Positions 6,601 to 53,906 of a DNA stretch of 64,000 bases are shown here, one piece after another. Made by a program: the position numbers and the translations under genes. The stretch comes from Dermatobacter hominis (lineage in GTDB: Bacteria > Actinomycetota > Acidimicrobiia > Acidimicrobiales > Microtrichaceae): the NCBI RefSeq assembly GCF_020715685.1, contig NZ_CP085840.1, positions 4,354,891-4,418,890 of the forward strand, given 5' to 3'. The notes under the pieces were generated by a model. That model searched no databases and was not told the DNA's origin. It saw only the letters and a list, made by a program, of their open reading frames with translations. Position 1 is the first letter of the stretch. Every line of letters begins with the position of its first letter.

Positions 6601-6634
6601 GACGAGGGGCCGACCCACGGGTCGGCCCCTCGTC
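6601..6634. terminator. inverted repeat (15-bp stem) between convergent clpP and CAP-domain genes
   Basis: gacgaggggccgacc-cacg-ggtcggcccctcgtc perfect hairpin immediately after clpP stop and before the stop of the minus-strand gene at 6660. Confidence 0.5.
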
Positions 6635-6659
6635 CCGCGTCACGGGTGGTGTCGTCCGA

Positions 6660-7382: not shown

Positions 7383-7835
7383 TCAGTGCAGCGTCACCCC
7401 GCACTCGCGCGATGCCCAGCGCTCGACCCGGGAGCTGGTCGTGGCCATCTCCTCGAGCCGCCGGTTGAGCTCGTCCCGATCCTGCTCGACGACGGCGGCG
7501 TCGCCCTGGCCCTCGTCGCCGGCGCCGGGCACGGCGTTGCGATCGGCGGCCAGCAGCTCGACGATCTGCTCGACCGCGTCGGCGAGGTCCTGCATGTCCG
7601 ATCGGATGTCGTCGGGAGCGCTGCCGGCGAGTTCGGAGAACTGCTCGGCAGCTGTTCGGGCGCGGTCCAGGTCCTGGGACTCGAGCGCGCTGCTCAGCGC
7701 CGACATGTCGGCCTGCTTCGAGAGGTCGTCGCAGAACCCGGGCCGGCCGTCACCGCACGCGCCCGTGGTCACGGCGCCGACGGCGAGTGCGAGCGCGGCC
7801 GCGGCGCCGCGCAGCCCGAGCGTCCTTCCCGGCAC
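7383..7835 (-). CDS. hypothetical lipoprotein
   Basis: 150 aa; signal peptide with Cys (LAVGAVTTGACGDG), acidic helical body; no recognisable domain. Confidence 0.4.
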   Translation of the reverse strand: MPGRTLGLRGAAAALALAVGAVTTGACGDGRPGFCDDLSKQADMSALSSALESQDLDRARTAAEQFSELAGSAPDDIRSDMQDLADAVEQIVELLAADRNAVPGAGDEGQGDAAVVEQDRDELNRRLEEMATTSSRVERWASRECGVTLH

Positions 7836-7845
7836 GACGAGGTCG

Positions 7846-8526: not shown

Positions 8527-8593
8527 GGCGGGGCCTCGAGTGGTCGAGCGCGGGTGGGAACGCGCGCGAGCGTACCGGTCCTATCGTTCGCCC

Positions 8594-10659: not shown

Positions 10660-10661
10660 CG

Positions 10662-10753
10662 GCGGCGGTGATCTCTGCCTGGGCGGCGGCTGTCTCTGCC
10701 TGGGCGGCGGTGATCCCTGCCTGGGCGGCGGTGATCCCTGCCTGGGCGGCGGC
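10662..10753. repeat. intergenic 21-bp tandem repeat (~4.4 copies)
   Basis: gcggcggtgatctctgcctgg / gcggcggctgtctctgcctgg / gcggcggtgatccctgcctgg x2 / partial; lies between glutaminyl cyclase stop (10659) and next gene start (10808). Confidence 0.8.
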
Positions 10754-10807
10754 CGGGCAGGCCGGTGCTACCTTTCGCGAGCAGTCGACTCCGGGGGGAA
10801 CGTCGCC

Positions 10808-13367: not shown

Positions 13368-13399
13368 AAGGGGCCCGGAACGATCGTTCCGGGCCCCTT
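13368..13399. terminator. perfect 32-nt palindrome (bidirectional terminator-like hairpin)
   Basis: aaggggcccggaacgatcgttccgggcccctt between the 12901..13323 gene stop and the 3' end of the convergent tRNA-Lys. Confidence 0.5.
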
Positions 13400-13405
13400 C
13401 TGCAG

Positions 13406-13478
13406 TACGCCCCCCGGGACTCGAACCCGGAACCAGCGGATTAAGAGTCCGATGCTCTGCCAATTGAGCTAGAGGCGC
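13406..13478 (-). tRNA. tRNA-Lys (anticodon CTT)
   Basis: rc reads GCGCCTCTAGCTCAATTGGCAGAGCATCGGACTCTTAATCCGCTGGTTCCGGGTTCGAGTCCCGGGGGGCGTA: D-arm GCTC..GAGC, anticodon loop CU-CTT-AA, T-loop GGTTCGAGTCC; CCA not encoded. Confidence 0.8.
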
Positions 13479-13563
13479 ACGTGGCTCCGCCGGGCGGACC
13501 CGGCGGAGTTGGATTGTAGCGACCCGACCTCGACGGCCCGAACCGTCGACGCCTGCCGCTTCG

Positions 13564-13639
13564 GGTGACCGAGGGGACTTGAACCCCCGACCTCCAGGGC
13601 CACAACCTGGCGCTCTAACCGGGCTGAGCTACGGCCACC
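13564..13639 (-). tRNA. tRNA-His (anticodon GTG)
   Basis: rc reads G-GTGGCCGTAGCTCAGCCCGGTTAGAGCGCCAGGTTGTGGCCCTGGAGGTCGGGGGTTCAAGTCCCCTCGGTCACC: extra 5' G(-1) characteristic of tRNA-His, anticodon loop UU-GTG-GC. Confidence 0.85.
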
Positions 13640-13718
13640 AAGGCAAGGCGGACGATCATATACGGTGCCGCCGGGGAGGCTGCAGTCCGGTATCGCCGGG
13701 CCCTGCTCCGTCCCGCTC

Positions 13719-13792
13719 GCCCCCGTAGCTCAGCTGGATAGAGCAAGTCACTTCTAATGACAAGGTCGCAGGTTCGAGTCCTGCCGGGGGTG
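13719..13792 (+). tRNA. tRNA-Arg (anticodon TCT)
   Basis: GCCCCCGTAGCTCAGCTGGATAGAGCAAGTCACTTCTAATGACAAGGTCGCAGGTTCGAGTCCTGCCGGGGGTG: cloverleaf with anticodon loop CU-TCT-AA. Confidence 0.85.
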
Positions 13793-13824
13793 CTCAGCGC
13801 AGCGTCGGGGTGCGCCGGCGCGGG

Positions 13825-33048: not shown

Positions 33049-34146
33049 TCAGGACCCGAGGTCGATCGCGGCGTCCGCGACCGCGGTGATCGGCCACCGC
33101 CGCCCGGAGCTGCCGAACACGCACGCGCCGGCCCCGAGCTCGGGGTCGAGCCGCATGATGTGCCAGTAGCCCATGCCGCCGCCGAAGTGCTGCACCCGTG
33201 GACCGGGATCGCCGTGGGGGCGGAACCAACCGAGCCCGACGTCGTAGGGGCGACCCGGCGTCCCGATCGTGGCCATCGCCGCCCGGCTCGCCTCGCCGAG
33301 CACCTTCCGGCCGGCGGTGCCCTCGCCACGGGCGTGCAGGGCCAGCAGCTCGACTGCGTCGCCGATCGTGCCCACGAGCCCGCCGTAGGCGGCGCCGTCG
33401 ACGTCGAACGGGTGGAGCCGCACGAAGCCCCCGGCGCGGTCGCCGACGATCCGCGGCGGGAGCACCCGGCCCACGACCGCCTCCGTCGCACGGCCCATCG
33501 GCTGGTGGGCGGTGAGCCGGCCCGCGCCCGGCACGCCGGACCACGACGTGGCGGTCGAGCCCATGCCGAGGGGACCCAGGACCGTGCGGTCGAGGACGTC
33601 CTCGAACGGGGCGCCGGCGGCCGCGGCGATGACCTCGCCGAGGGCGAGGTAGCCGACGTTGGAGTAGCGCGCCCTCGCGCCGGGAGCGCCGCGAGGGCGG
33701 CGCTGCCGGCGGAGCAACCGGGCGAGGAAGTCCCGCGGGTCCGGTCGTGGCCGTCCTGCGGCGTGCACCCATCGGATCGGGACGGGGTTGGACAGCCCGC
33801 TGCTGTGGGCCAGCAGGTGCCGGACGCGCACGTCCGCGAACGCAGCGGGCCACAGGTCGGGGAGGTGCTGCCCGACGGGGATGTCGAGGTCGAGCAGGCC
33901 GCGCTCGGCGAGCGTCATCGCGGTCGTCGCGGTCGCGACCTTGGTCATCGAGAACCAGTTGGCCGCGTCGTCCAGGGACGCCGGCCTCCCGGCCCCGAGG
34001 TCGTCGGTCCCGGCCCGTCCGAAGCGGGCGCCGTCGCCGTCGACGACCCCGATCAGGACCGCGGGCACCGTGGAGGCGTGCACCGCACGCCGGGCGAGCT
34101 CGTCGAGCCGCTCGTCGCGCTGCGGTCGGTCGTCCAAGGGCGCCAT
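33049..34146 (-). CDS. serine hydrolase (beta-lactamase/esterase family)
   Basis: ATG at 34146 within ORF 33049..34203; SMTKVATATTAM (S-x-x-K), YSNVGY, HSSG motifs. The longer track start (MRVRFPSPAL) is translation of the tRNA-derived att repeat. Confidence 0.8.
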   Translation of the reverse strand: MAPLDDRPQRDERLDELARRAVHASTVPAVLIGVVDGDGARFGRAGTDDLGAGRPASLDDAANWFSMTKVATATTAMTLAERGLLDLDIPVGQHLPDLWPAAFADVRVRHLLAHSSGLSNPVPIRWVHAAGRPRPDPRDFLARLLRRQRRPRGAPGARARYSNVGYLALGEVIAAAAGAPFEDVLDRTVLGPLGMGSTATSWSGVPGAGRLTAHQPMGRATEAVVGRVLPPRIVGDRAGGFVRLHPFDVDGAAYGGLVGTIGDAVELLALHARGEGTAGRKVLGEASRAAMATIGTPGRPYDVGLGWFRPHGDPGPRVQHFGGGMGYWHIMRLDPELGAGACVFGSSGRRWPITAVADAAIDLGS

Positions 34147-34173: not shown

Positions 34174-34218
34174 GAGAGCGGGTGACGGGAATCGAACCCG
34201 CATGACCAGCTTGGAAGG
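34174..34218. repeat. attR: 45-bp direct repeat = partial 3' copy of tRNA-Gly
   Basis: gagagcgggtgacgggaatcgaacccgcatgaccagcttggaagg identical to 43721..43765 (3' half of tRNA-Gly: acceptor 3' strand, T-arm, part of anticodon arm). Confidence 0.85.
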
Positions 34219-34331
34219 TCACCCGGGGCGATGTCGCCGACTGTCGCTCCCTGTCATTTCAACAGGTCCGACACTAGGCGACAGGTCCCGAATCCCAGCG
34301 GCCGCGCGCACGGCGCGCGCACGGCTGGTGT

Positions 34332-35150
34332 TTACCGGGCCGGCCGACCGGCGCGTCCTGGGGGAGCGTGGCCGAGCTTGCGGGCTCGTCGGATCCGCTC
34401 TCGGGCTTGCTGCGGGCTGCACGCATGGCCTGAAGCCCTGGCGAGCGCGGCCGCCACAAACGAGTACATCGAGTCAGGTCGGCCGGCAGCCTCCCACGCC
34501 TGGAGAGCGTCTGGCACTGCGTTGACCTGCGCTGCAGCGACGTCGGATGAAACGCGGTCGGACACGGGGCCCTCGGCTCGAGGCGGCTGCAGCATCACGC
34601 TGACGTCCTCGAGATCGGCAGGTCGGAGCGAGCCGTCGTCGACGAGCGCCAGGGCCCTCGCTCCTTCCTTCACGACGTGAGTGAGGGGGATCCTGCGGAT
34701 GTTGCCGGGCGTCGCAGCCGGGCCGCCTTGCCTAGCGATGACGCACACCGCCTCCGGCTCCAGCACGGCCTCGGGGGTGTCATCGGACCAGCGGAGCCTG
34801 ACTCGGTAATCGAAGTCCCCGAGCATCCCGCATGGCTCCGACACGTCCATGTTTACGATCTCGACCAGGCCCGTTCGGAACATGACCTTCCGGCCGGGTC
34901 CGGCCTTGCGGTGGATCTCCGCCGCCGTGTCGCCCGCGTCCGGCAACCGCCGAACACGCATGGCTGCTGCGGGCCGCGCAAGGAACGCACGGGCGCCCTT
35001 GATGAGCTTGTCGATCCCGGCGTACTGGCCACCCCGCAGCTTTAGGGCTGCGCGACTCCGCAATCGAGCGAGCTCGTCCTCCCACGGCGGCAGATCGAGC
35101 TGGGGACGTTCGACCGAAATGTGGGTGGGGGGTGCTGGTGGCATACCCAC
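34332..35150 (-). CDS. hypothetical protein (att-adjacent cargo of the integrated element)
   Basis: 272 aa, balanced composition (K/D/E present, not Arg-biased), lower-GC DNA; divergent from excisionase gene; no recognisable domain. Confidence 0.5.
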   Translation of the reverse strand: MGMPPAPPTHISVERPQLDLPPWEDELARLRSRAALKLRGGQYAGIDKLIKGARAFLARPAAAMRVRRLPDAGDTAAEIHRKAGPGRKVMFRTGLVEIVNMDVSEPCGMLGDFDYRVRLRWSDDTPEAVLEPEAVCVIARQGGPAATPGNIRRIPLTHVVKEGARALALVDDGSLRPADLEDVSVMLQPPRAEGPVSDRVSSDVAAAQVNAVPDALQAWEAAGRPDSMYSFVAAALARASGHACSPQQARERIRRARKLGHAPPGRAGRPAR

Positions 35151-35219
35151 ATTCTTCCATCGATTGTTGGGACTTGAGCGACATCACCGGGATGTCCGAG
35201 ACCAAAGGGAGGCCCGTCG

Positions 35220-35414
35220 GTGGCCGAGCTTCGCAAGATGCTGTTCTCCATGCAGGAGGGGTGGGAGTCGACCGGCCTCGGTCGCACCACGTTCCTGCAC
35301 CTGGTCCGCGAAGGCAGGATCGAGACGGTCCGGGTGGGCCGGCGCCGGATGGTCACGGCCGATGCGCTCGAGGCGTTCGTCGATTCGCTCAAGGCCGACC
35401 AGGACGCGGCCTGA
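35220..35414 (+). CDS. xis: excisionase / AlpA-like HTH_17 DNA-binding protein
   Basis: 64 aa; LGRTTFLHLVREGRIETVRVGRRRMVTADALEAFV is the classical excisionase/MerR-like winged HTH. Confidence 0.75.
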   Translation: MAELRKMLFSMQEGWESTGLGRTTFLHLVREGRIETVRVGRRRMVTADALEAFVDSLKADQDAA

Positions 35415-36094
35415 TGTCGGACATCTCCGTCCTCCGCCAACTCGCCGAGCGAGCGGCCGTCGTTGAGCTCGCGCGAGCCGGCGCAGCCGAGGCGACCGGC
35501 AGCTCCGAGAACTTCGAACGTCACGTTCTCGAGGCCGCCGACGTGCTCGCACAGATGTTCCTTGTGGACGCCATCGGTGTTCCGTACGTGATCGAGGCGC
35601 TCAAGTCGCACGGCCCTCTCGTTCGACCGGGCGACTTGCTGGCGGCGACGGAACTGGCCTCCGACGCGATCGCACGGATCGCCGATGAGCGACCCGCCGT
35701 GCTCCACCCGGACTGCTCGAAGTGGATCGACACGGCGATCGTCGAGTTCGACAGCGCCGACCGAGACAGGGTGGCGGCTGCCGCCACCCTGGTGATGAGC
35801 GTCGACGGCATCTCGATGCCGGGCGACCTGCCCCTCACCGACGAGCTGCGCGACCTCGCCGGGGAATGCACGGCTGCAGACCTCCGCGCTGGCATCAGGG
35901 TCCGGGAGCTCCACGCCAAGGAGCTCGCAGACTCGTCGACCCGTCTGGCGGAGCTCCTCCAGACGCTGGAGCACCCCATGTTGAACCGGGGCCTGACGCT
36001 CGAGGAAGCGGTCAACGAGCTGAGCGGCGAGGACCGAGTCCACGCCGAGGAGCTGCTCGCATCATTGCCCACGATCCTGTGCGTGGTCCGCTGA
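35414..36094 (+). CDS. hypothetical protein
   Basis: ATG at 35414 overlapping xis stop (TGATG); 226 aa acidic helical protein; no family assigned. Confidence 0.5.
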   Translation: MSDISVLRQLAERAAVVELARAGAAEATGSSENFERHVLEAADVLAQMFLVDAIGVPYVIEALKSHGPLVRPGDLLAATELASDAIARIADERPAVLHPDCSKWIDTAIVEFDSADRDRVAAAATLVMSVDGISMPGDLPLTDELRDLAGECTAADLRAGIRVRELHAKELADSSTRLAELLQTLEHPMLNRGLTLEEAVNELSGEDRVHAEELLASLPTILCVVR

Positions 36095-36095
36095 C

Positions 36096-36284
36096 GTGGC
36101 CCAGACGCGAACCGACCGGGCGCTGGTGACGCCCGGTCGGCCAGTCGTTCACGACGACGGAATCACCAGCGATCCTATCGACCGCTACAGCCGACGAACC
36201 GCTGGCCGCTTCTGGGAGCGCCAGGCGGAACGCGACGAGCAGATGCGGAAGACCTGCCAGCACTGTGGACGTGAGGCGTCATGA
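36096..36284 (+). CDS. small hypothetical protein
   Basis: 62 aa ORF ending CQHCGREAS, stop overlaps RepA-like start (ATGA), consistent with translational coupling; weak. Confidence 0.3.
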   Translation: MAQTRTDRALVTPGRPVVHDDGITSDPIDRYSRRTAGRFWERQAERDEQMRKTCQHCGREAS

Positions 36285-37303
36285 GGGGCGATGTCGACGC
36301 TCCTCCGAGGCGCACAGCGTGGACCGCGTCGGAGCTCATGGCCGCGGTGTTCCCCGATCCGAAGTGGGCCGTCCCGGGCCTGCTCTGCGAGGGGTTGAAC
36401 TTGCTCGCCGGCGCTCCGAAGCTCGGCAAGAGCTGGTTCGCGTTGAACGTGTGCGTGGCCGTCGCCGCCGGCGGGCGGGCTCTGGGCGCCGTCCAAGTCG
36501 AGCAGGGCGACTGCCTCTACCTGGCCCTCGAGGACACCCCGCGCAGACTGCAGTCTCGGCTGCGTCTCGTGCTGGGTGACGAGCCTGCGCCTGATCGTCT
36601 CACTGTCGACGTGGAGTGTGCACGGTTCCCGGACGGCGCGTCCAAGGTCGCCCAGTGGCTTCGTGACCACCCTGACGCGCGGCTCGTGGTTGTCGACGTG
36701 CTGACGAAGGTGCGCCCGGTTCCGGACGGCACGGTCGGGCGCTACGAGGCGGACTACCTGGCGGTGTCGGCCATGAAGGCGCTCGCCGACGACCACGGCG
36801 TGGCGCTGCTGGTCGTGCACCACACCAGGAAGCAGGAGTCGGTCGACTACCTCGACAGCGTCTCAGGCACGCAGGGCCTCGCCGGCGCCGCCGACGCGGT
36901 GCTCGTCCTGGCCCGTTCGCGCGGGTCAGCGCAGGCGGTCCTGAAGGTCACCGGGCGAGACATCGAGGAGACCGACCACGCCCTCGACTTCGACGCCTCC
37001 ACCGGGCTGTGGAAGCTCCTCGATGGGCCGGCCGAGGACTACCTCCTGCAGGACACCCGGCGACGCATTCTCCAGCACCTCCGGGACCAGGACGCTGCGC
37101 TTCAGCCGAAGACGATCGCCTCGGCGCTCGACCTCAATCACGAGTCGGTGAAGAAGACCTGCCAGCGCATGGCAGGCGACGGGCAGCTCGAGAACGACGG
37201 CGGCCGCTACCGCCTCCCCGTGTCCCCTGTCCCTCCTGTCCCTCTGTCCCTCATCGAGGGGGACACAGGGACACGGGGGACACCAGATAGGGGGCCCCTG
37301 TGA
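36281..37303 (+). CDS. RepA-like RecA-family ATPase (AAA_25)
   Basis: 340 aa; Walker A LLAGAPKLGKSWFALNV, Walker B-like LVVVDVLT, HHTRKQ motif; architecture of AAA_25 replication/primase-associated ATPases common on integrative elements and phage satellites. Confidence 0.75.
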   Translation: MRGDVDAPPRRTAWTASELMAAVFPDPKWAVPGLLCEGLNLLAGAPKLGKSWFALNVCVAVAAGGRALGAVQVEQGDCLYLALEDTPRRLQSRLRLVLGDEPAPDRLTVDVECARFPDGASKVAQWLRDHPDARLVVVDVLTKVRPVPDGTVGRYEADYLAVSAMKALADDHGVALLVVHHTRKQESVDYLDSVSGTQGLAGAADAVLVLARSRGSAQAVLKVTGRDIEETDHALDFDASTGLWKLLDGPAEDYLLQDTRRRILQHLRDQDAALQPKTIASALDLNHESVKKTCQRMAGDGQLENDGGRYRLPVSPVPPVPLSLIEGDTGTRGTPDRGPL

Positions 37304-37536
37304 GAGAGACCTCCGCTGCGAAGGCTCGTCGGTACCTCACCGAAGGCCGTGTCCTGCTTCTGCACGTCGGTCAACTCCGTGTCGTCGCGCAGGTTCGCGG
37401 CGACGGCTGCGTGCACGAAGTGAGGGTCAGCGGCCCCTCTTGGCAGTGCACCTGCCCCGCTCGAGGGCGCTGCTCGCACCAGCTCGCCGTCGGCCTCGTC
37501 GTTGCCATCGATCACGAAGCCCCCGCACCTCACTGA
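37300..37536 (+). CDS. SWIM zinc-finger small protein
   Basis: 78 aa; WQCTCPARGRCSHQ = CxCx5CxH SWIM pattern; start overlaps RepA-like stop (ATGA). Confidence 0.45.
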   Translation: MRETSAAKARRYLTEGRVLLLHVGQLRVVAQVRGDGCVHEVRVSGPSWQCTCPARGRCSHQLAVGLVVAIDHEAPAPH

Positions 37537-37553
37537 CCCCGAAAGGACTACCC

Positions 37554-38465
37554 ATGCCCACCCGATCCACCCTCCATCCGCAACAGGACGTCCGACGTGT
37601 CCTCCGCGCTCTCGACGCTGCCGGACTCGGCGACGCCATCCCCGACGTCCGGACGACGCTCGACCGCGCCGAGCACCTCGCCCGCTCGGCGTCGCAGGCC
37701 CCGCGCGAGATCGCGGACGTCAGCCACGAGCTCGCCCGCCAGCTCGCCGCCGGAGCGATCACACCTGACGAAGCAGGCGCCGCCGTCCTCGACGCCGAAC
37801 GTGCTCACGCCGCACACGGCGCGGGCGTGAAGCTTCTGCGAGCCGCTGGCGACATCGCCGCTCGCAAGGCGTCTGACCTCCTCGCCGCCGAAGCCGAGAC
37901 CCTCATCGCCGACACCCTCTGGCCCGCGGGCGTGAAGGTCATCGAAGCGGCCGTCGACGCCGGCGACCAACTCCCCGACGACGTGCACTCTGCCGAGGAC
38001 GCCATGAACGGCGACCCCGTCACCCGCCGAGCCTGGGCCCAGCTGCACGACGCCGCCACCGCCTGGAAGCTCCTCACCGCCGCCGCTTGGGAGCTCCACA
38101 ACGGAGGCTTCACCCGCCTCTCACCCCGAGCCGCAGCCGCCGCCGAGACCAACGCCGGCCGCCGCCTCTTCGAGTACCGCAACCCCGACCAGGTCCTCTC
38201 CCACGTCGGCCTCCCCGAACCGCTCGTCCTCCTGAACGACATCCGCTCAGGAGCAGAGCCCGAGATCCAGACCCTCGAGCAGCTCCGGGCCACCGAAGCT
38301 GAGGTCGACCGCCGAGTCGCCGAGGAGCGCGACGCCCTGGCGTTCGCCGCTCGCCCCAACGTCAGCACCCCGAACAGCGAGCGAGCGAAAGCAGCAGCCC
38401 GCGAGCTCAAGGCCGAGCTCGCCGCCGAAGCCGCCCTCGTCCCCGAACCGGAGGACGCCGCGTGA
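37554..38465 (+). CDS. hypothetical Ala-rich helical protein
   Basis: ATG at 37554 preceded by gaaagga; 303 aa; no family assigned. Confidence 0.5.
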   Translation: MPTRSTLHPQQDVRRVLRALDAAGLGDAIPDVRTTLDRAEHLARSASQAPREIADVSHELARQLAAGAITPDEAGAAVLDAERAHAAHGAGVKLLRAAGDIAARKASDLLAAEAETLIADTLWPAGVKVIEAAVDAGDQLPDDVHSAEDAMNGDPVTRRAWAQLHDAATAWKLLTAAAWELHNGGFTRLSPRAAAAAETNAGRRLFEYRNPDQVLSHVGLPEPLVLLNDIRSGAEPEIQTLEQLRATEAEVDRRVAEERDALAFAARPNVSTPNSERAKAAARELKAELAAEAALVPEPEDAA

Positions 38466-38668
38466 TGGGCAACCACCACGACCGCGAGAGGGCGCGCGCT
38501 GCGGCACGCGACCTCGACGCCGAACAGCAACCGAGCGACGACCTCGCCGCCAAGCTCGCCAACCTTCGCTCCGGTGGCGTCAGCCCCGAAGACCTCGGCG
38601 GCGACCCGAGCGACGCCGACCTCGATGAGCTCGTCGCCCGCACCCAGAAGCGGCCCTTCAGCGTCTGA
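38462..38668 (+). CDS. small acidic hypothetical protein
   Basis: 68 aa; start overlaps upstream stop (ATGA). Confidence 0.4.
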   Translation: MMGNHHDRERARAAARDLDAEQQPSDDLAAKLANLRSGGVSPEDLGGDPSDADLDELVARTQKRPFSV

Positions 38669-38864
38669 TGATCTGCACCGGCGACTCGGGAACGGCAAAC
38701 CGGCTGCGGCCGGCTGTCGTCGTCGCGTGCACCCCGGTGTCGGGGGCGGAGCTTGACCGCGGCCGTCCTCGACACCGGACCCCCTTGGCAAGCGCACCCT
38801 CGGTCACTGCGGAGCCGGTCGGCCCTGCTCCACCGATTTGTGTGTGAAGGATCAGGACTGACCC

Positions 38865-39164
38865 ATGCCGAAACGAACGGGCCGTCGCTGGCGCGAGAAG
38901 ATCGTCCCGAGGGTGATCCGCCGCGACGGTGGACGGTGTCACCTGTGCGGGAGGCTCGGAGCCGACAGCGCCGACCACATCATCCCGTGGAGTCACTTCC
39001 CGCCCGACCAGAAGCACCTCGCCGACCGGCTCGAGAACCTGGCCGCAGTCCACAACGATCCCTGCAACCGGATCCGCGGAGCCCGGTCCGTCGTCTGGGC
39101 TCGAGCTGAGATCGCTCGCCGCAACGCGGTGGCCGAGCAGGCGGCGGCGGGGTGGAAGTGGTGA
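38865..39164 (+). CDS. HNH endonuclease
   Basis: 99 aa; CHLCG...DHIIPWS...N...H...CN HNH motif with zinc-binding Cys pairs; RBS-like aaggatcagga upstream. Confidence 0.75.
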   Translation: MPKRTGRRWREKIVPRVIRRDGGRCHLCGRLGADSADHIIPWSHFPPDQKHLADRLENLAAVHNDPCNRIRGARSVVWARAEIARRNAVAEQAAAGWKW

Positions 39165-39598
39165 CGGGGGTGGGGGGGAAGCCGAAGTCGACCCGAAACG
39201 GAGCCATCGGCGTCGGCTCCGCCATCTCCCCCCGGCATTTTTTTGCACCGCTGGAGGGGCTCATTCGGCCTCTCGGCCGTGTGGAAACTCGCCTGTGTGT
39301 AAGAAACGGCGCTGCGCCGATCGGCTCCGTCTGTGGCGGTTGCGGGGCACTCCCCAGGTCGTCAAAGGACGCCGAGTGTCAAGGTCAGCTCAGGTCGGCG
39401 AGCTCGAGCAGACGGTCGAGGCGCTCGACCAGCTGTGGCCATGTCTCGGTCAGGGCGAGCCGCTTGTCGGGGTGCAGGACGAACTGGTCTCGGATCCCCG
39501 TAGCCAGGCCGGCGTACTGGGCGAGACGGACGAGGTCGCGGTCGGAGCGGGCCACGCCGCCGACGGTAGGTCGCTCGTGTGACGGTCAGCCGTGGGCG

Positions 39599-39991
39599 TC
39601 ACGCGGCGGCGCGCCCGGCGGTGACCGCTCGCTGGCGACGGCGTTCCTGAGGCGACGTGCCGGCGAGGATCCCGTCGTTCGCCGCAGTGCCCTGCTCCCG
39701 CGCCCAGACCGAGCACTCGGGAAGCACGGCGCAGGACGCGCACAGGGCTCGGGCTTTGGCCCCGGAGTTGGCGGGGAACATGACGGCGGTCTGACCGCGG
39801 CAAGCAGCCTCGGTCTGCCATGCGGGCTCCGGGCCGATCGCCTCGAGGAGCACCGCCAAGGCTTCGGCTACGTGCTGCAGCTGCTCCTCGCGCTTGCGGT
39901 CAACGTCGTCCGCTGCGGCCAGAAGCAGGGGGAGGCTTTTCACGTTGTCACCGTACCGCTTGCGCAACCCGCTGGTTGCGTAGCGGATCAA
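39599..39991 (-). CDS. WhiB-like (Wbl) iron-sulfur transcription factor
   Basis: 130 aa; C-x22-C-x2-C-x5-C (AACRGQ...CASCAVLPEC) spacing of WhiB family followed by basic tail. Confidence 0.7.
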   Translation of the reverse strand: MIRYATSGLRKRYGDNVKSLPLLLAAADDVDRKREEQLQHVAEALAVLLEAIGPEPAWQTEAACRGQTAVMFPANSGAKARALCASCAVLPECSVWAREQGTAANDGILAGTSPQERRRQRAVTAGRAAA

Positions 39992-39997
39992 CGGGAT

Positions 39998-40555
39998 CTA
40001 CCGCTTTCGACGGCGAGCGCGGCGTCTGCTGAAACGAGCCGACGACAGCCGACCGTCCGGCCATCTGACCCACCTCCGGCCCTGGCCGTCACGAAACCAC
40101 AGAACTACCGGGACGACGCGGGGACCACCACCGAAGCTCTCGATCAACGGTCCCCATTCGACGACCTCGCTGATCGATCGAGGCACGATCAGGCTGTAGT
40201 AGCGGCCGCCCATGTGTTCGCCTGTCCACACGTCGGTGGGACGGCGGAGCCGCCAGAACCACCTCCGCCGGCCCCAGTCGAACAAGGCGATAGACGCATC
40301 GAGGATTGGTGTCTCCCCGTCGTTCTGGATCGCCGCTGCAGTGATTGCGAACCCGTCGGGGCGTGGTTGTCCGTTCACGGGCAACGTTGCCGCTGCGGAT
40401 CGGACAAACACCGCCGCCGCAGCTGCGCGGCGACGGTCCCATTGCGCAACGACAAACGTGGCGACTGCGGCGAGTCCGCCGAGCACGCCGAGCACAGCGA
40501 TCGTCCGGCTCCACGTCCACCAATCCGGCCACTGCGCCGCAGACACCCTTCCCAT
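39998..40555 (-). CDS. hypothetical membrane-anchored protein
   Basis: In-frame ATG at 40555 of ORF 39998..40648; N-terminal TM (WSRTIAVLGVLGGLAAVATFVVAQW); Trp-rich body; no family. Confidence 0.45.
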   Translation of the reverse strand: MGRVSAAQWPDWWTWSRTIAVLGVLGGLAAVATFVVAQWDRRRAAAAAVFVRSAAATLPVNGQPRPDGFAITAAAIQNDGETPILDASIALFDWGRRRWFWRLRRPTDVWTGEHMGGRYYSLIVPRSISEVVEWGPLIESFGGGPRVVPVVLWFRDGQGRRWVRWPDGRLSSARFSRRRARRRKR

Positions 40556-40668
40556 CGGCCGCACGCTACGGCAGCGGCTGGGGCTACGGTGGCGCCGACA
40601 ACTGAGTGGGCCCGGCGCTGCGTCAACAGCCCGGGCCCTGGCCAACACCTACAGAGGAGGTGCTGACG

Positions 40669-41163
40669 GTGGACGACTCTACGTTCCCCGACCTGGCGAC
40701 CGTGCTTGATGCCGGCGCCTTCCCCGCCGACGACGACGGCCTGCGCTCGACGCTGGCCGAGGCGCTCGTCGACCTAGCCACGTATCCGGACCTGGAGCGC
40801 CTGGTCGAGCTGCGCCGGACCCATGTCGAGCTCCGCAGGGACCTCGCATGGGCGACAGAGCTCCTCGAGAATCCGCAGCTCGCCGAGCGGATCTTCGACC
40901 AGTACGACGTCGTGTTCCGCCTCGACGTCGAGCAGACCGTCGACCGCGCACGACGCTCCCACCCGATCCACGTCGGCCGCCGTTATGAGTGTCCCGACGC
41001 AGGAGAGCGGTGGAAGTGCGAGAACTGCGGTGTCGGGCACACCAACGACCAGCCGGCGTTCGTCGTTGGTGACCGTCCCGGCTTCTCGGACCTGCCGTAC
41101 CCGATCACGTACTGCGTGCCCTGTGTGCAGATGGCGGTGGCTGCCTTGGAGACTGTCCGATGA
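40669..41163 (+). CDS. hypothetical Cys-rich (zinc-ribbon-like) protein
   Basis: GTG at 40669 after gaggagg; C-term YECPDAGERWKCENCGVGH...YCVPCVQ; stop overlaps int1 start. Confidence 0.45.
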   Translation: MDDSTFPDLATVLDAGAFPADDDGLRSTLAEALVDLATYPDLERLVELRRTHVELRRDLAWATELLENPQLAERIFDQYDVVFRLDVEQTVDRARRSHPIHVGRRYECPDAGERWKCENCGVGHTNDQPAFVVGDRPGFSDLPYPITYCVPCVQMAVAALETVR

Positions 41164-42119
41164 GCGGCCACCGCCTGCGTCGCAGCGAGGGCTGCGACTC
41201 GCTCCTCCCCCTCGCTGCCGAGTCGCGCAGAGGCGTGACCCCGGAGATCCAGACGCTCGTCGAGGCGTACCTGCAGGAGCGGGTCGACCGGAAGCTCATG
41301 AACGAGAAGTCCGCTCGAGGCGTCGGCTACGCGCTGCTGCAGCTCGGCCGAGCTCATGGCGACCGACCCGTCGGCGACCTCGACGACCAGACCGTCGATC
41401 GGTACCTCGACCACTACGCCGACGCTGCGCCCGCGACGCTGCGGCGGGTGATCGCCGCGGCGACCGGCTGGGTCAAGTGGCTGCGTCACCGCGGCGTCCT
41501 CGACCGGGACCCGTTCTGGAACGTCGAGAAGCCATCCCTGCCCCGGTACCTGCCGCGGGCGCTCGACGCCGCTCAGGTACGCGCCGTGTTCCAAGCGTGC
41601 ACCAACCCTCGCGACACGCTCGTCGTGTCCCTGATGGTCAACGAGGGCCTCCGGTGCGTCGAGGTGTCGCGCCTACAGGTCGGCGACCTCGACCTCCGGA
41701 GCCGCACGATGCGGATCCACGGCAAGGGCGACCACGAGCGCATGCTGCCGATCACCGACGAGTCGTGGTCGTGCCTGCGGATCTACCTCGAGACGTTCGA
41801 GCTCGTCGGCGGCCCGCTGCTCAGGGACATCCGCTGGGGCGAACGGGGCCTCACCGCTCAGTGGGTCAGCGACCTCGTACGCGGCCTGATGACGGACGCC
41901 GGCGTGAAGCGCGGCCGCTACGACCGGGTGAGTGCCCACAGTCTCCGCCACACCGCGGCAACGGACATGCTCCGCAACGGCGCCCACGTCAGAGACGTCC
42001 AGCACGCCCTCGGCCACGCCAACCTCAAGACCACCGAGACGTACATGCCCCTCGTCGTGAACGACCTGCGATCGGCCATGAACGGTCGCTCGTACCGCTT
42101 TCCGGAGGTGGACCGCTGA
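41160..42119 (+). CDS. tyrosine recombinase (XerC/D-like, no arm-binding N-terminus)
   Basis: 319 aa; catalytic region HSLRHTAATDMLRNGAHVRDVQHALGHANLKTTETY (R..H-x-x-R...Y). Confidence 0.85.
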   Translation: MSGHRLRRSEGCDSLLPLAAESRRGVTPEIQTLVEAYLQERVDRKLMNEKSARGVGYALLQLGRAHGDRPVGDLDDQTVDRYLDHYADAAPATLRRVIAAATGWVKWLRHRGVLDRDPFWNVEKPSLPRYLPRALDAAQVRAVFQACTNPRDTLVVSLMVNEGLRCVEVSRLQVGDLDLRSRTMRIHGKGDHERMLPITDESWSCLRIYLETFELVGGPLLRDIRWGERGLTAQWVSDLVRGLMTDAGVKRGRYDRVSAHSLRHTAATDMLRNGAHVRDVQHALGHANLKTTETYMPLVVNDLRSAMNGRSYRFPEVDR

Positions 42120-43273
42120 TGGCTTCGATCGTCAAGCGTCAGACCTCGAAGGGCGACACCCACTACCTCGTCCGTTACCGGGACCCGTCCGGCAAGGTCC
42201 GCAACAAGACCTTCCGACGAGCCGAGGACGCGCGTCGCTTCGCGTCGACGACCGAGGCCGACATGGTGCGCGGCGCGTGGGTCGACCCGAACGCCGGCCG
42301 GGTCCTGTTCCGCGACTACGCCGCCCGGTGGGTGGCCGAGCGGACAACCAGCCGAGGCCGGAAGCTCGCGCCGCGCACGGTCGAGCTCTACCGCTCCCAG
42401 CTCGCCAAGCACATCGAGCCGACCTTCGGCGACGTCGACCTGTCGAAGATCACCGTCGCTGCGGTGCGGTCGTGGCACTCGCAGCTCGTCGGCCGAGGCC
42501 ACCCGACCGCCGCCGCGAAGTGCTACCGACTCCTCCGGGCCATCCTGGCGACCGCCGTCGAGGACGACCTGATCCTCAAGAACCCGTGCACGATCAAGGG
42601 CGCAGGCGTGGAGCGGTCAGGGGAGCGCCCGGTGGCCACCGCCGACCAGGTGTGGGACCTCGCCGACGAGATCGACGACCACCTCCGGGCCTTCATTCTC
42701 GTCGGAGCCTTCGCCGGACTCCGGTTTAGCGAGGCCGCTGGTCTGCAACGTCGACACGTCGACCTCTTGCACCGAACGATCACCGTCGAGCACCAGCTCG
42801 AGCGGGTCAGCAAGGCCACCGCAGAGCACCTCGGCATGGACACCGTCGGGTTCGGCCCGCCGAAGTCCGACGCCGGCTACCGCACGCTCGCCATCCCGGC
42901 GCCACTGGTGCCCGAGCTCGAGCGACACCTCGGCATCTACGCCGCGCCGGGGCCCGACGGGCTCGTGTTCGTGGGTCCGCTCGGGGCGCCGCTCTCGCGT
43001 GGCAACTTCACTCACCAGTGGAAGCCGGCCAGGATCGCCGCTGGCCTCCCGGCAGGCTTCCGCTACCACGACTTGCGCCACACCCACATGACGGCGGCAG
43101 CCGAGTCCGGAGCGTCCACCAAGGAGCTCATGCGCCGTCTCGGTCAGTCCTCGCCGGCGGCGGCGCTGCGCTATCAGCACGCGACGGACCGGCGTGACGT
43201 CGAGATCGCCGACGCAGTGGGGGCGACCCTCCGTCGACGCTCGGACGATCGTCGAGCGGGTCAAGGCGCGTAA
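42119..43273 (+). CDS. int: phage-type tyrosine integrase with N-terminal arm-type DNA-binding domain
   Basis: 384 aa from ATG overlapping int1 stop (TGATG); N-term KGDTHYLVRYRDPSGKVRNKTFRRAEDARRF (AP2-like arm-binding), catalytic HDLRHTHMTAAAESGASTKELMRRLGQSSPAAALRYQH. The 816-aa track ORF 40823..43273 is an artefactual extension. Confidence 0.85.
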   Translation: MASIVKRQTSKGDTHYLVRYRDPSGKVRNKTFRRAEDARRFASTTEADMVRGAWVDPNAGRVLFRDYAARWVAERTTSRGRKLAPRTVELYRSQLAKHIEPTFGDVDLSKITVAAVRSWHSQLVGRGHPTAAAKCYRLLRAILATAVEDDLILKNPCTIKGAGVERSGERPVATADQVWDLADEIDDHLRAFILVGAFAGLRFSEAAGLQRRHVDLLHRTITVEHQLERVSKATAEHLGMDTVGFGPPKSDAGYRTLAIPAPLVPELERHLGIYAAPGPDGLVFVGPLGAPLSRGNFTHQWKPARIAAGLPAGFRYHDLRHTHMTAAAESGASTKELMRRLGQSSPAAALRYQHATDRRDVEIADAVGATLRRRSDDRRAGQGA

Positions 43274-43569
43274 CCGAAGCCCTCCATGCACTCCTCGTAG
43301 CTCATGCTGTACGTGCCGCTCTCGCTGATGGTCTTGCAAGTCCGGCTTGCAGAGGCGGGCGCAACCGGGGTGCCGATGTCCTCGACCGACTCAGTTCCGT
43401 CGTCCACCGAAGGAACGTAAATCGGCTCGTCAGGACTCGAGCTTCCGCCGCCGAGCATCAACCCGGCGGCGATGGCGCCCACGAAGAGGATGACCATCAC
43501 CGGTACGCCGACGTACCAGGGGATGTCGATCTGGGCTGCCAGAGACTGCTTGCGGGGTTCCTCGTCCAT
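43261..43569 (-). CDS. small hypothetical membrane protein
   Basis: In-frame ATG at 43569 (MDEEPRK...IPWYVGVPVMVILFVGAIAAGLMLGG...); one TM helix; between int and attL. Confidence 0.4.
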   Translation of the reverse strand: MDEEPRKQSLAAQIDIPWYVGVPVMVILFVGAIAAGLMLGGGSSSPDEPIYVPSVDDGTESVEDIGTPVAPASASRTCKTISESGTYSMSYEECMEGFGYAP

Positions 43570-43720
43570 GCCATAGGCATCGGCGCCCGGCCTGAACGGC
43601 TGAAACGTTGGTACTGCGAGCCGAGTCCGCGCGCAGGCCGCGCGCACGGCTGACGAGCGGGTGAATATGGGCCAGGACGCGCAAATGGCCGAACCCCTTG
43701 CAACCGTAGGGATCCGGCCG

Positions 43721-43765
43721 GAGAGCGGGTGACGGGAATCGAACCCGCATGACCAGCTTGGAAGG
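43721..43765. repeat. attL core: 45-bp direct repeat within tRNA-Gly
   Basis: Identical to 34174..34218. Confidence 0.85.
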
Positions 43766-43795
43766 CTGGGACTCTCGCCATTGAGCTACACCCGC
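43724..43795 (-). tRNA. tRNA-Gly (anticodon TCC)
   Basis: rc reads GCGGGTGTAGCTCAATGGCGAGAGTCCCAGCCTTCCAAGCTGGTCATGCGGGTTCGATTCCCGTCACCCGCT; anticodon loop CU-TCC-AA; T-loop GGTTCGATTCC. Confidence 0.85.
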
Positions 43796-46853: not shown

Positions 46854-49017
46854 CGATGCCGGACTTGCGGAGCCACGCCGGGCCGGAGGTGCGGCCCTGG
46901 AGGGCGCCGGCCGGCGACGGGGTCGCGGCCGGTGCCGCCGGCGCGGCCGGTGCCGCCGGCGCGGCCGGTGCCGTCGGCGCGCCCTGAGTCGCAGGAGCCG
47001 ACCCGTTGCCGGACGGGGCCGGCGCGGTGGCGCCCGCGTCGGGCGGGGCCGGCGCGTCGGCGTCGCCCTTGATGCGCTCGGCGCGCTCCTTCTCGAGCCG
47101 GCGCAGCTCCGTCTCGACGCGTGCCAGCTGGTCCTCGCTGTACGGGAACCGGTAGCCCTCGGCCACGAAGCGCGCGGTGTCGGCCCGGTAGTCGTGGCCC
47201 GTGGAGCGGAAGTCGCCGGGGCTGTTGCGCATGGCGTTCGCCGCGTCGATGAGCGTCTGCAGGAACGTCACGACCGGGTACCAGCGCTGGCCGGCGGGCA
47301 CGTTGCGGCCGCGGGGCTCGCCCAGCCAGTCGGGCTGGCGGAACAGGATCGACGGGTCGACGTGGGTGATCGGATCGTTGTCGTGGCTGAGCTGCACGAC
47401 GCGCAGGGCGTCGCGCTGCTCGGGGGTGAGCTGCTCGAGCTCCTCCCACCGGTCGAACACGCCGACGGTCCCGGGCGGGGTCATCGCCCCCGGGCGGTCG
47501 AGGCCCGCCTTCGACCACTTGGCCAGGTGCGGCATGCCGAACCACAGGGCCCGGCTGATGCTGTAGCCGTCGAAGCCCTCGATGCCGGACTTCATGACGA
47601 CGTCGGACGACGACCACGCCCCGAGGCTCTCGCCGAACACCAGGACCTCGGGCCGGTCGGCCGGGTCCATGCCCATGAGCCGCTGGTGGACGCCGAGCAC
47701 CAGCGTCCGGAACTGGCGGCGACCCTGGCGCACCTTCTGCAGCGACAGGAACGACGGGTACCGCCCGTACTGCACGCACACCGTCGCGATGTCGCCGCGG
47801 GCGAAGAACTCGGCCGACTCCTGCACCGTGTGGTCGACCCAGCCCGTGCCGGTCGGCGACACGAGGAGCAGGTACCTCCGCTCGAACGCCCCGACCCGCT
47901 CGAGCTCGGCGAGCGCCGTCTCGGCCCGGGACGCCGAGTGGATCGGGTGGTCGTTGAAGCCGATGTAGATCCGGATCGGGGTCTTGGCGCCCTGCTCGTC
48001 GAGCGTGCGGTCGATGAGGTCCGGGTCGAGGGCGTCGAGCACGAAGCGGCGGCCCTGCTGGCCGAGCTCGTCGAAGGTCGCCAGGCTGTCGGGCGACCCG
48101 GAGACGAGCGGGTTGGTGGGCGGCGTGGCGTAGCCCGGGTCGACCTTCTCGTTCGACCGGCCGATGTAGGAGATGCCGGTCCAGTAGAGCCCGGTCAGCC
48201 CGCCGGCCCACATCGCCGCGTTGACGCCACGGGCCAGGACGTTCTTCGTGATGCCCGGCCCGAAGTAGCGGATCCAGCCCTTGCGGGTCATCCGGAACGA
48301 CGCGGCGAGGCCGGTGCCGACCGCCGTCACCGCGGCGGTGTCGAGCATGGCCTTCGGCAACGTCAGCGGCAGCTGGTCGAAGTCGTCGGTGAAGAACGAC
48401 CGGCGCTCCGCGAGATAACGCCGGGAGGCGAAGGTGGCGACCCCGAGCGAGGCGCCGGTCGTGATCGCCAGGCGGCGCACGCTGCGGGCGTCGTCGCCCT
48501 CCTTGGGGTCGACCTTCGAGAGGACGTCGTAGAGCGCCCCGCCGGCAGCGCCGACCTGCAGGAGCTCGCCGGAGAGGCGCGACACGCCGGCGGTCCAGCG
48601 CTGGTCGTCGGCGTCGGGCGCGCTGGCGAGCGCGTTGCCGCCCGCCACCATCGCGGCGCGGGCGACCAGGCGGACCGTGAGCGACGAGCTGCCGAACGTG
48701 ACCCGGTTGGTGATGCGCTCGACGGCGGAGCTGACGCCGCGGGCCGCGAGGATCGACAGCCCGCTCACCACCCCCTGGTGCAGCGAGGTGCGCGGCATCA
48801 GCGAGGGCTGGACGGACCGGATGAAGCTGGTCGTCTCGAGCGGGGCGCCCGGCGACGAGGTCAACGGCGAGATGACCGACAGCACGGACTCGAGCCGGGT
48901 GACCGCGGCGGAGCCGCGGGGCGCACCCTCGAGCGCGACGTCGGCGGTCCCCGTCGCGGGGAGGTCGTCGGGTCCGACTCCGGGCTGGGCGTCGGGGGCG
49001 GGGGTCGGGTCCTGCAT
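46846..49017 (-). CDS. membrane-anchored alpha/beta-hydrolase family protein (Abhydrolase_9-like) with Pro/Ala-repeat tail
   Basis: ATG at 49017 within ORF 46846..50232; N-terminal TM region, hydrolase core with nucleophile elbow LVFGESLGAWSS and downstream H/D; C-terminal (PAA)n repeats encoded by 18-bp DNA repeats (46920..46990). Confidence 0.7.
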   Translation of the reverse strand: MQDPTPAPDAQPGVGPDDLPATGTADVALEGAPRGSAAVTRLESVLSVISPLTSSPGAPLETTSFIRSVQPSLMPRTSLHQGVVSGLSILAARGVSSAVERITNRVTFGSSSLTVRLVARAAMVAGGNALASAPDADDQRWTAGVSRLSGELLQVGAAGGALYDVLSKVDPKEGDDARSVRRLAITTGASLGVATFASRRYLAERRSFFTDDFDQLPLTLPKAMLDTAAVTAVGTGLAASFRMTRKGWIRYFGPGITKNVLARGVNAAMWAGGLTGLYWTGISYIGRSNEKVDPGYATPPTNPLVSGSPDSLATFDELGQQGRRFVLDALDPDLIDRTLDEQGAKTPIRIYIGFNDHPIHSASRAETALAELERVGAFERRYLLLVSPTGTGWVDHTVQESAEFFARGDIATVCVQYGRYPSFLSLQKVRQGRRQFRTLVLGVHQRLMGMDPADRPEVLVFGESLGAWSSSDVVMKSGIEGFDGYSISRALWFGMPHLAKWSKAGLDRPGAMTPPGTVGVFDRWEELEQLTPEQRDALRVVQLSHDNDPITHVDPSILFRQPDWLGEPRGRNVPAGQRWYPVVTFLQTLIDAANAMRNSPGDFRSTGHDYRADTARFVAEGYRFPYSEDQLARVETELRRLEKERAERIKGDADAPAPPDAGATAPAPSGNGSAPATQGAPTAPAAPAAPAAPAAPAATPSPAGALQGRTSGPAWLRKSGIGG

Positions 49018-53261: not shown

Positions 53262-53906
53262 GTGCCCCCCATCCAGCCGCAGAGCTACCTCGTCCCCAAC
53301 GTCATCGAGCAGACGAGCCGTGGTGAGCGCTACTCGGACCTGTACTCGCGCCTGCTCCGGGAGAACATCATCTTCCTCGGCACGCCGATCGACGACGCCG
53401 TGGCCAACCTGATCTGCGCCCAGCTGCTGTTCCTCGAGTCGGAGAACCCCGACAAGGACATCAGCATCTACATCAACTCGCCCGGCGGCGACATCAACGC
53501 CCTGATGGCGATCTACGACACGATGCAGTACATCCGGCCCGAGATCGCCACCCTGTGCTTCGGCCAGGCGGCCTCGGCGGCGGCGGTCCTGCTCGCCGCC
53601 GGCACGCCCGGCAAGCGCCTCGCGCTTCCCAACGCCCGGGTGCTGATCCACCAGCCGTACGCCCAGTCGGGCTACGCCCAGGTGTCGGACCTCGAGATCG
53701 CCGCCAACGAGATCATCCGGCTCAAGGAGACCCTCGAGCACGTGCTGTCGCGCCACACCGGGCAGTCCGTCGAGAAGATCTCCAAGGACACCGACCGCGA
53801 CTACGTGATGACCGCGGCCGAGGCCAAGGAGTACGGCATCATCGACGAGGTCATCGAGGCCCGCGACATCGTCGACAACAGCGGGCCCATCGCGGCGATC
53901 CGCTGA
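53262..53906 (+). CDS. clpP: ATP-dependent Clp protease proteolytic subunit (ClpP2-type)
   Basis: GTG at 53262 after aggaga; [33 protein letters not shown]...[50 protein letters not shown]...IHQP matches mycobacterial ClpP2. Confidence 0.9.

Follow-up and report, generated by a model that had tools for sequence, protein, structure and literature searches.

A 9.5-kb island in tRNA-Gly(TCC) of Dermatobacter hominis with the probable organisation of a phage satellite

The window analysed here is a stretch of 64,000 nucleotides from Dermatobacter hominis (contig NZ_CP085840.1, positions 4,354,891 to 4,418,890). It contains an island of 9,547 bp (34174-43720) at the 3' end of a tRNA-Gly(TCC) gene. 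Judged by its predicted genes and by its relatives, the island is probably (we put the chance at roughly 0.6) similar to the phage-inducible chromosomal islands (PICIs): integrative, self-replicating, not self-transmissible, and organised like a phage satellite of that type. It represents 9.5 kb of recently acquired mobile DNA in D. hominis and accounts for a split copy of the tRNA-Gly gene. The attL/attR signature in a tRNA gene and the int-xis-rep plan are textbook features. The island itself is undescribed, its proteins being annotated merely as hypothetical or as 'AAA family ATPase'.

Insertion into the tRNA-Gly(TCC) gene

The 45-mer GAGAGCGGGTGACGGGAATCGAACCCGCATGACCAGCTTGGAAGG occurs in exactly two copies in the window, at 34174-34218 (attL) and 43721-43765 (attR), both on the plus strand and with 0 mismatches, while shuffled controls gave a match in 0 of 100 shuffles. 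Because the bases bordering the two copies differ (gcgt and t around one, gccg and c around the other), the repeat is exactly 45 bp long; the 64 kb contain no other long perfect direct repeat. The right copy consists of the 3' 43 nt of tRNA-Gly(TCC), from the anticodon stem and anticodon onwards, and extends 2 nt past the 3' end. This tRNA gene is intact and lies on the minus strand, at 43723-43795 according to ARAGORN and at 43724-43795 according to Rfam (66.5 bits). The left copy has the same part of the tRNA without a 5' half, and no tRNA was called there.

Empty sites were sought by searching one genome per species with the protein of the left flank, a beta-lactamase-like protein. The closest relatives by this measure are two metagenome-assembled genomes of Actinomycetes, L001 (73% identical) and L004 (70%). 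Each has an intact tRNA-Gly(TCC) directly upstream of the beta-lactamase-like gene and contains the 45-mer once. L001 positions 1-1242 align to window 44950-43721 and positions 1198-8284 to window 34218-27197, so that the two flank alignments share exactly the 45-bp repeat; L004 behaves in the same way, and in comparison with both genomes attL is the left end of the insertion. Because the flank alignments of L001 and L004 overlap on exactly this single copy, the comparison shows the unit 34174-43720 to be an insertion, made by site-specific recombination into the 3' end of tRNA-Gly(TCC), with the 45-bp core of attP rebuilding the tRNA gene in the process. The island thus has what is seen in tRNA-targeting integrative islands of the tyrosine-integrase type: repeats of a tRNA 3' end, empty sites in relatives, and an integrase beside the att site.

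Composition also sets the island apart. Its GC content is 69.4%, compared with 73.1% outside, and none of 71 windows of 9.5 kb taken outside it falls so low (minimum 70.9%). GC at third codon positions is 0.73-0.91 in the island genes and 0.89-0.97 in the flanking genes. The left flank carries an SPFH/Band-7 gene and the beta-lactamase-family gene, the right flank an alpha/beta hydrolase gene and genes for two STAS proteins. An initial annotation of this DNA had described perfect 45-bp direct repeats, an intact minus-strand tRNA-Gly with the repeat in its 3' half, a left copy devoid of a tRNA 5' half, GC lower than in the flanks, and flanks made of ordinary chromosomal genes, and all of this is borne out. 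Its central claim, site-specific integration into the 3' end of the tRNA, agrees with the empty sites, where the tRNA abuts the beta-lactamase-like gene as it had predicted.

The beta-lactamase-like gene (33049-34146) most likely starts at ATG 34146, with a GGAGGAG Shine-Dalgarno sequence, about 28 nt from the tRNA fragment in attL. This distance equals the spacing between tRNA and gene in the empty sites, and the insertion has therefore severed the gene from the DNA that lay upstream of the tRNA. Its upstream neighbour on the same strand is now island gene g01.

Replication module and recombinases

Genes were called from codon-position GC (frame plot) and checked against Pfam, PHROGs, NCBIfam and PADLOC. 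From left to right the island has g01 on the minus strand, a plus-strand operon (g02-g10), a gap of 220 bp, minus-strand genes g11-g13, a further plus-strand operon (g14-g16), and g17 on the minus strand. Many stop and start codons overlap in the plus-strand operons. The gene content given in the initial annotation is confirmed as to two tyrosine recombinases (41160-42119 and 42119-43273), an excisionase (an HTH_17, Xis-like protein at 35220-35414), a RepA-like ATPase (an AAA_25 protein at 36281-37303), and small genes with overlapping stop and start codons. That reading needs refining. The recombinases are of different kinds, one an integrase with an arm-type region (g16) and the other XerC/XerD-like (g15). 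The island, which is without transfer and virion genes, is neither a prophage nor a conjugative element.

The replication operon is headed, at the far (left) end of the island, by g02 (35220-35414, plus strand), which encodes a putative excisionase or regulator of 64 aa with an HTH_17 domain of the MerR/AlpA/Xis type (PF12728, 27.1 bits against a cut-off of 27). Further along lies g05 (36281-37303, plus strand), whose product of 340 aa is a RepA/DnaB-like AAA_25 ATPase (PF13481, E=1.6e-32) with a C-terminal winged helix-turn-helix (a weak HTH_20 match), and a putative replication helicase or initiator. Its PHROG matches are primase/helicase and DnaB-like helicase families; a primase domain was not detected. 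It is the sole protein with a Walker A motif across the six frames of the island, and more than 3000 homologues, at about 55-78% identity, are spread across Actinomycetota.

Within the last 80 nt of g05 lies an array of inverted iterons (37221-37282), composed of four TGTCCCY copies, ATCGA, and three RGGGACA copies. These 62 bp hold 7 of the window's 11 TGTCCCY sites. The array has a DNA hairpin z-score of -2.3, and its palindrome produced two miRNA 'hits' in the Rfam scan, in which the tRNA was the sole genuine match. The layout and position of the array are common to every relative examined, and the motif differs by lineage: TGTCCC occurs in L012, L007/L008, L009, L014 and L029, TGTCAC(C) in L010, L021, L022, L025 and L027, GCAACC in L023, GTCAGA in L033, AAAGTT in L031 and L034, CTACAC in L035, and TGTTAC in L039. 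In these lineage-specific motifs, at least seven in number, both arms change together. Because the motif co-varies in both arms, the array is best understood as a site read at the DNA level by a cognate protein, that is, as origin iterons; it is a candidate Rep-binding site and probably the origin of replication. SaPI-type islands (Staphylococcus aureus pathogenicity islands) have their origin in a comparable place, at or just after rep. In the mechanism that we propose, the excised circle would replicate by means of the ATPase g05, whose winged helix-turn-helix would bind the inverted TGTCCCY array in the 3' end of its own gene and so use it as origin.

The integrase gene g16 (42119-43273, plus strand) reads toward the tRNA. 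Its product of 384 aa has the build of a classical integrase, with an N-terminal arm-type region, a SAM-like core-binding domain and a catalytic domain (PF00589, PF22022 and PF14659; PHROG_1 integrase, E=2e-64), and alignment to Tn1549 Int (PDB 6en0) finds R, K, HxxR and Y kept. Candidate arm-type sites, in the form of a 26-nt motif with tandem CGCGCGCACGG, lie near both ends of the island. The left one (34302-34327, plus strand) has two tandem copies and is 84-109 bp inside attL; the right one (43627-43652, plus strand), 92% identical and in the same orientation, is 69-94 bp inside attR. The exact 11-mer CGCGCGCACGG has 3 copies in 64 kb, all near the att cores and in one orientation. Integration and excision through the 45-bp core would be catalysed by g16, aided by the Xis-like g02, and g16 probably binds the CGCGCGCACGG motifs some 70-110 bp inside both ends.

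The second recombinase gene, g15 (41160-42119, plus strand), overlaps g16 at a TGATG and encodes an XerC/XerD-like tyrosine recombinase of 319 aa (PF00589, E=4.5e-28). NCBIfam Xer models match it, yet below their cut-offs, and alignment to XerD (PDB 1a0p) finds the full catalytic set R-K-H-R-H-Y. Ahead of it stands g14 (40669-41163, plus strand), which opens the recombinase cassette in every case and encodes 164 aa with a CxxC...CxxC C-terminus; its homologue search returned 5 proteins, and its structural model (pLDDT, the predicted local distance difference test, of 63) had no Foldseek match at E<=0.001. The trio g14-g15-Int recurs with overlapping stops and starts on the independent contigs L015 and L016, where g15 is 76% and g14 61% identical to the window's but Int just 42%. 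Since a conserved g14-g15 pair is found with divergent integrases beside different tRNA genes, Int tracks the tRNA target and g14-g15 does not.

Contig L015 ends past its integrase gene in what appears to be the 3' end of a class-II tRNA on the opposite strand (2700-2804; T-arm, acceptor and encoded CCA).

Two tyrosine recombinases, and a minus-strand block (g11-g13) that interrupts the plus-strand operons, might indicate a composite of two elements in tandem in the same tRNA, one per recombinase, with the middle att site lost. We consider this very improbable. No third att copy is present in the window even with 3 mismatches allowed, nor was a degenerate copy found; the recombinase genes overlap, and independent contigs carry them together with g14 as a single cassette; and the total size is that of single sister islands.

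Immediately upstream of g14 is a non-coding leader (40596-40668, plus strand) with the inverted repeat GGGCCCGG-N15-CCGGGCCC and a Shine-Dalgarno sequence. These approximately 75 nt are about 97% identical to the corresponding DNA of four unrelated metagenome contigs, L015-L018, against 75% for the coding DNA, and the DNA further upstream is unrelated. The leader could equally serve as an operator, a 5' untranslated region or a recombination site. We infer that g14 and g15 act on a site internal to the element. Multimer resolution of a replicating circle is the most economical and most likely role for g15 and g14, and the leader is the best candidate for their site. In the proposed mechanism the two would thus form a separate conserved module, for example one that resolves multimers of the circle.

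Tyrosine recombinases are known to resolve replicons in Cre/loxP of P1, ResD/rfsF of F, TnpI/IRS of Tn4430 and XerCD/cer. The island resembles these systems in having an Xer/Cre-like enzyme on a predicted self-replicating element, with a conserved non-coding segment directly upstream. It differs in the spacer of the leader's inverted repeat, 15 bp compared with the usual 6-8-bp core of resolution sites, and in the partner protein g14, for which no relatives are known. Adjacent, co-transcribed tyrosine recombinases with a small accessory gene are likewise found in Tn554 (TnpA/TnpB/TnpC), RIT trios, GInt and SE elements. In those elements the recombinase set itself transposes, without duplication of a tRNA 3' end, whereas the att sites of the island are explained by its arm-type integrase. 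RIT and GInt elements have three tandem tyrosine recombinases, and the island has two plus the non-recombinase g14. A further difference from all of these is that in the cassette of the window the Xer-like enzyme is constant while the integrase and its target vary.

A second recombinase pair in L009 was considered as the same cassette and rejected, as the partner proteins are unrelated and the recombinases are 25% identical. A metagenome scan for the XerC-like enzyme found nothing above about 30% identity, and single-sequence viral scans were nearly empty.

Relatives, mode of transfer and known element classes

In every context examined, the AAA_25 ATPase is found in a small island together with an integrase and usually an HTH_17 gene. 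The closest relative is L012 (ATPase 77% and Xis 69% identical). There, as in L014, L010/L011 and most hits in IMG/VR, the Int-Xis-Rep genes are followed by HNH, the large terminase subunit (TerL), SPP1 portal, VG15 and HK97 capsid genes. L010 (8113-18084), L012, L014 and L021-L029 are tRNA-bounded islands of about 10 kb in which Int and the AAA_25 Rep are joined by this HNH-to-capsid block. The stretches of them that were seen have no tail or lysis genes, and they look like capsid-forming satellites of actinomycetes. The sister islands that could be delimited are all bounded by tRNA 3' repeats and are nearly equal in size. To the 9,547 bp at tRNA-Gly(TCC) in the window correspond 9,735 bp at tRNA-Lys in L008, 10,151 bp at tRNA-Val(cac) in L009 and 9,925 bp at tRNA-Val(tac) in L010; only the last has capsid genes. 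Among five unselected ATPase contexts, capsid genes are present in 3 and absent from 2. L007 and L008 are without them, and in both a homologue of g07 directly follows the ATPase.

The island of L008 (3152-12960), a related metagenomic genome, occupies a homologous tRNA-Lys gene with a 39-bp att repeat, and its ATPase is 67% identical to that of the window. The flanks of L008 are 68-87% identical to window 7844-10641 and 13388-13793. The window's own cluster of tRNA-Lys(ctt), tRNA-His and tRNA-Arg (13405-13793) has the tRNA-Lys site without a repeat, and the site appears unoccupied. L007 and L008 have a common left flank and common island genes up to a 114-aa open reading frame (ORF). Beyond it L007 continues into ABC-transporter genes, and L008 into six more island genes, the integrase and tRNA-Lys; the difference may reflect a deletion or rearrangement variant of the island.

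Searches with Pfam, PHROG and NCBIfam found no FtsK/SpoIIIE, relaxase, terminase, portal, capsid, tail or lysis genes in the island of the window, and TerL, portal and capsid genes are absent also by tblastn with the markers of L010 and L014. Because it is without genes for self-transfer and for virions, the island is neither a prophage nor an integrative and conjugative element (ICE), whether of the actinomycete type (AICE) or another. For a prophage, the predicted gene set has no structural, packaging or lysis genes and the size is only 9.5 kb.

A possible link to packaging is g10 (38865-39164, plus strand), for a protein of 99 aa. It is a predicted HNH endonuclease (PF01844, E=6e-6; PHROG HNH families, E=4e-11) of the type found at phage genome ends beside terminase, with a weaker match to phrog_4581 (E=5e-7), a family annotated as terminase small subunit. 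Among phages it best matches HNH genes of small Gordonia and Curtobacterium phages, each of which is the final gene of its genome. The small and large terminase subunits (TerS and TerL) are the first genes of the same phages, and the HNH gene thus has the position of a terminase-associated packaging factor. No tblastn match exists between g10 and the HNH genes of L012 and L014, and it is accordingly of a different subtype.

Since the nearest relatives with the Xis-Rep-iteron module carry HNH-TerL-portal-protease-capsid genes, the family appears to spread in phage-type particles. That the island keeps only an HNH gene of a terminase-associated type suggests dependence on a helper, and for packaging it would most likely depend on a helper phage or on a capsid-encoding relative. 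We infer phage-dependent transfer from these gene comparisons.

Known classes of elements help to place the island. PICIs are defined by five components, namely int, a regulator, pri-rep, capsid morphogenesis and TerS (de Sousa et al. 2023, PMC10085698), and elements with three of the five form 'Type C', which the authors deem ambiguous (PMC10085698). With its predicted integrase, regulator and replication genes, the island is a 'Type C' case with 3 of 5 components. It resembles PICIs and SaPIs in its size of about 10 kb, its site-specific tyrosine integrase, the small AlpA/MerR-type helix-turn-helix gene heading the replication operon, its own Rep helicase, iterons at or just after rep, accessory genes in between, and the absence of tail, lysis and structural genes. 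It differs from them in having no TerS or recognisable capsid-morphogenesis gene, in an integrase at the end opposite the regulator, in its host, an actinomycete of the class Acidimicrobiia, in the extra XerC-like cassette, and in having no known helper. In the SatelliteFinder scheme HNH is a core gene of capsid-forming PICIs (cfPICIs) and is found occasionally in PICIs (PMC10085698). A cfPICI-like order, Int-regulator-Rep-HNH-TerL-portal-protease-capsid, is seen within about 10 kb beside a tRNA gene in relatives L012, L014 and L010 and in the IMG/VR contigs. The island has its left arm, its size and the HNH gene in common with them, but tests for TerL, portal, protease, capsid and connector genes found none, and it is not itself a cfPICI. 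The EPIP satellites of Mycolicibacterium were rejected as relatives, as they have a serine integrase and structural genes.

Several observations weigh against a PICI-type satellite that moves with a phage. No small terminase, capsid-morphogenesis or helper-interference genes were found in the island with Pfam and PHROG, and there is no helper phage in the 64-kb window. The similarity of g10 to the phage HNH proteins, about 44% across some 70 residues (E about 1e-5), is modest. The non-coding gap that directly follows g10 (39165-39384), at 220 bp the largest in the island and situated between convergent genes, has no significant structure (z=-0.8) and no phage match; a cos site there was considered and set aside, as a conjecture that neither structure nor similarity supports. 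By the alignment to Tn1549 Int, the second conserved His has become Gln in g16, and the number of arm-type sites is not significant by itself (shuffle mean 0.75, maximum 4). About ten island proteins, the conserved g07 among them, gave no assignable function in family and fold searches. The enrichment of capsid-encoding relatives is in part a selection effect of the viral contig collection.

The same relatives raise the alternative that the island is a transfer-defective relic, a decayed capsid-forming, satellite-like island minus TerL, portal and capsid genes, which still integrates and excises, and perhaps replicates, but no longer moves between cells. Its closest Xis-Rep relatives do have HNH-TerL-portal-capsid directly after Rep, while the island retains only an HNH gene of a different subtype, and no gene for packaging specificity was found. 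Several findings speak against decay. The att repeats are perfect, the ORFs for recombinases, Xis and Rep are intact with catalytic residues present, the GC content is still distinct from the host, and two relatives have empty sites; together these point to a recent, active insertion. Intact genes are conserved elsewhere (g07-g09 in L019, g14-g15 in L015-L018), there is no pseudogene debris, and another capsid-less island, that of L008, equals it in size and has a g07 homologue. On balance we regard such a relic as unlikely.

Transfer might also occur by conjugation, if the island were an AICE-like mobilizable element moved in trans, through a cis site, by the TraB (FtsK/SpoIIIE-like) translocase of a co-resident plasmid or AICE. 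AICEs such as pSAM2, SLP1 and pMEA300 are 9-17 kb long and have att sites at tRNA 3' ends with an identity segment of about 45-58 bp (te Poele et al. 2008, PMC2440964). The plan of the island resembles that of pSAM2 (about 10 kb, att at a tRNA 3' end, rep-xis-int, int beside att; PMC2440964), and the likeness to AICEs extends to an actinomycete host and to replication after excision, which for the island is a prediction. The 8-bp repeats at the 3' end of the ATPase gene also recall the clt/TRS sites of TraB plasmids. Against this, Pfam and NCBIfam found no FtsK/SpoIIIE-domain, Nudix or GntR/XRE protein in the island, which accordingly differs from AICEs in being without an FtsK/SpoIIIE-type Tra, spd genes, a Nudix Pif and a GntR/XRE Kor. 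As Rep it has an AAA_25 helicase in place of RepSA, RepAM or Prim-Pol, and the PHROG matches of this ATPase are replicative helicases and primases. The presence of the same ATPase-iteron module in islands with terminase, portal and capsid genes ties the module to phage-type spread. We find mobilization of this kind quite unlikely, and a PICI-like satellite remains our preferred reading.

The sister islands allow a more far-reaching proposal, to which we give a slim chance. The islands would form an undescribed, widespread family of actinobacterial tRNA satellites of about 10 kb, with a core of Xis, AAA_25 Rep and in-gene iterons, in which capsid-less members are packaged in the small capsids of their siblings, as satellites of a satellite, and which has also recruited a dedicated XerC-like/g14 recombination module with its own conserved site. 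If this were true, the equal unit length would be explained by shared small capsids, and capsid-less members would contribute only the HNH packaging factor.

Phage satellites are poorly charted in Actinomycetota, and the literature searched yielded none from Acidimicrobiia. One core, made up of the HTH_17 gene, the AAA_25 helicase and in-gene inverted iterons, is common to many tRNA islands of about 10 kb across Actinomycetota, some with a full head-packaging module and some without. The family offers a defined starting point: its origin and arm sites are predicted, it has a candidate for a packaging nuclease, and the cassette of the second recombinase is conserved. At the family level, the lineage-specific in-gene iterons, the constant size of about 10 kb whether or not capsid genes are present, and the conserved XerC-like cassette may merit the attention of specialists.

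Other island genes and the surrounding window

The remaining genes of the island have few family matches. At the left end, g01 (34332-35150, minus strand; 272 aa) is transcribed divergently from the xis-rep operon and is, given this arrangement, a candidate regulator. It has no match in Pfam, PHROG, NCBIfam or PADLOC, and an exhaustive HMMER search found only 7 relatives among 1.8 billion representative proteins, which were uninformative. In the replication operon, g03 (35414-36094, plus strand; 226 aa) is translationally coupled to g02 and was called by frame plot, with no family match, and g04 (36096-36284, plus strand; 62 aa) is an uncertain call. After the ATPase gene come g06 (37300-37536, plus strand; 78 aa), which has a weak SWIM zinc-finger match (PF04434, 17.6 bits, below the cut-off), and g07 (37554-38465, plus strand; 303 aa), predicted to be all-alpha with long helices. 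The homologue of g07 in L007/L008 is 40% identical, and in L019 g07 occurs together with g08 and g09, which encode 68 and 59 aa (38462-38847, plus strand) and are syntenic with it there. The homologue search with g07 gave 5 proteins, and its AlphaFold model (pLDDT 64) had no Foldseek match at E<=0.001.

The minus-strand block consists of g11 (39385-39555; 56 aa), an uncertain call from the frame plot with no family match, g12 (39599-39991; 130 aa), a WhiB-family regulator (PF02467, E=2.5e-10, and PHROG WhiB families), and g13 (39998-40555; about 185 aa), a predicted membrane protein with no family match. A long plus-strand ORF across this block (39152-40666, 504 aa) was rejected as a gene, since it is antisense to the WhiB gene and g13, has the poorer codon-position GC pattern and matches no family. 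Next to the tRNA, g17 (43261-43647, minus strand; 128 aa) is an uncertain call for a possible small membrane protein and likewise matches no family.

A PADLOC scan of the island found no defence system. In a nucleotide search with 8 kb of the island no deposited phage matched, and plasmids gave merely trivial short matches. Scans for sigma-70 promoters and for terminators were uninformative in DNA of 70% GC.

Repeats of other kinds occur elsewhere in the window. An in-frame tandem repeat at 10661-10765 has about 5 copies of the 21-bp unit GGCGGCGGTGATCTCTGCCTG, and another, at 46908-46979 within a large Abhydrolase_9 gene, has about 4 copies of the 18-bp unit CGGCCGGTGCCGCCGGCG. A direct repeat of 300 nt with 71% identity (6002-6301 and 53325-53624), its copies 47 kb apart, presumably represents paralogous genes.

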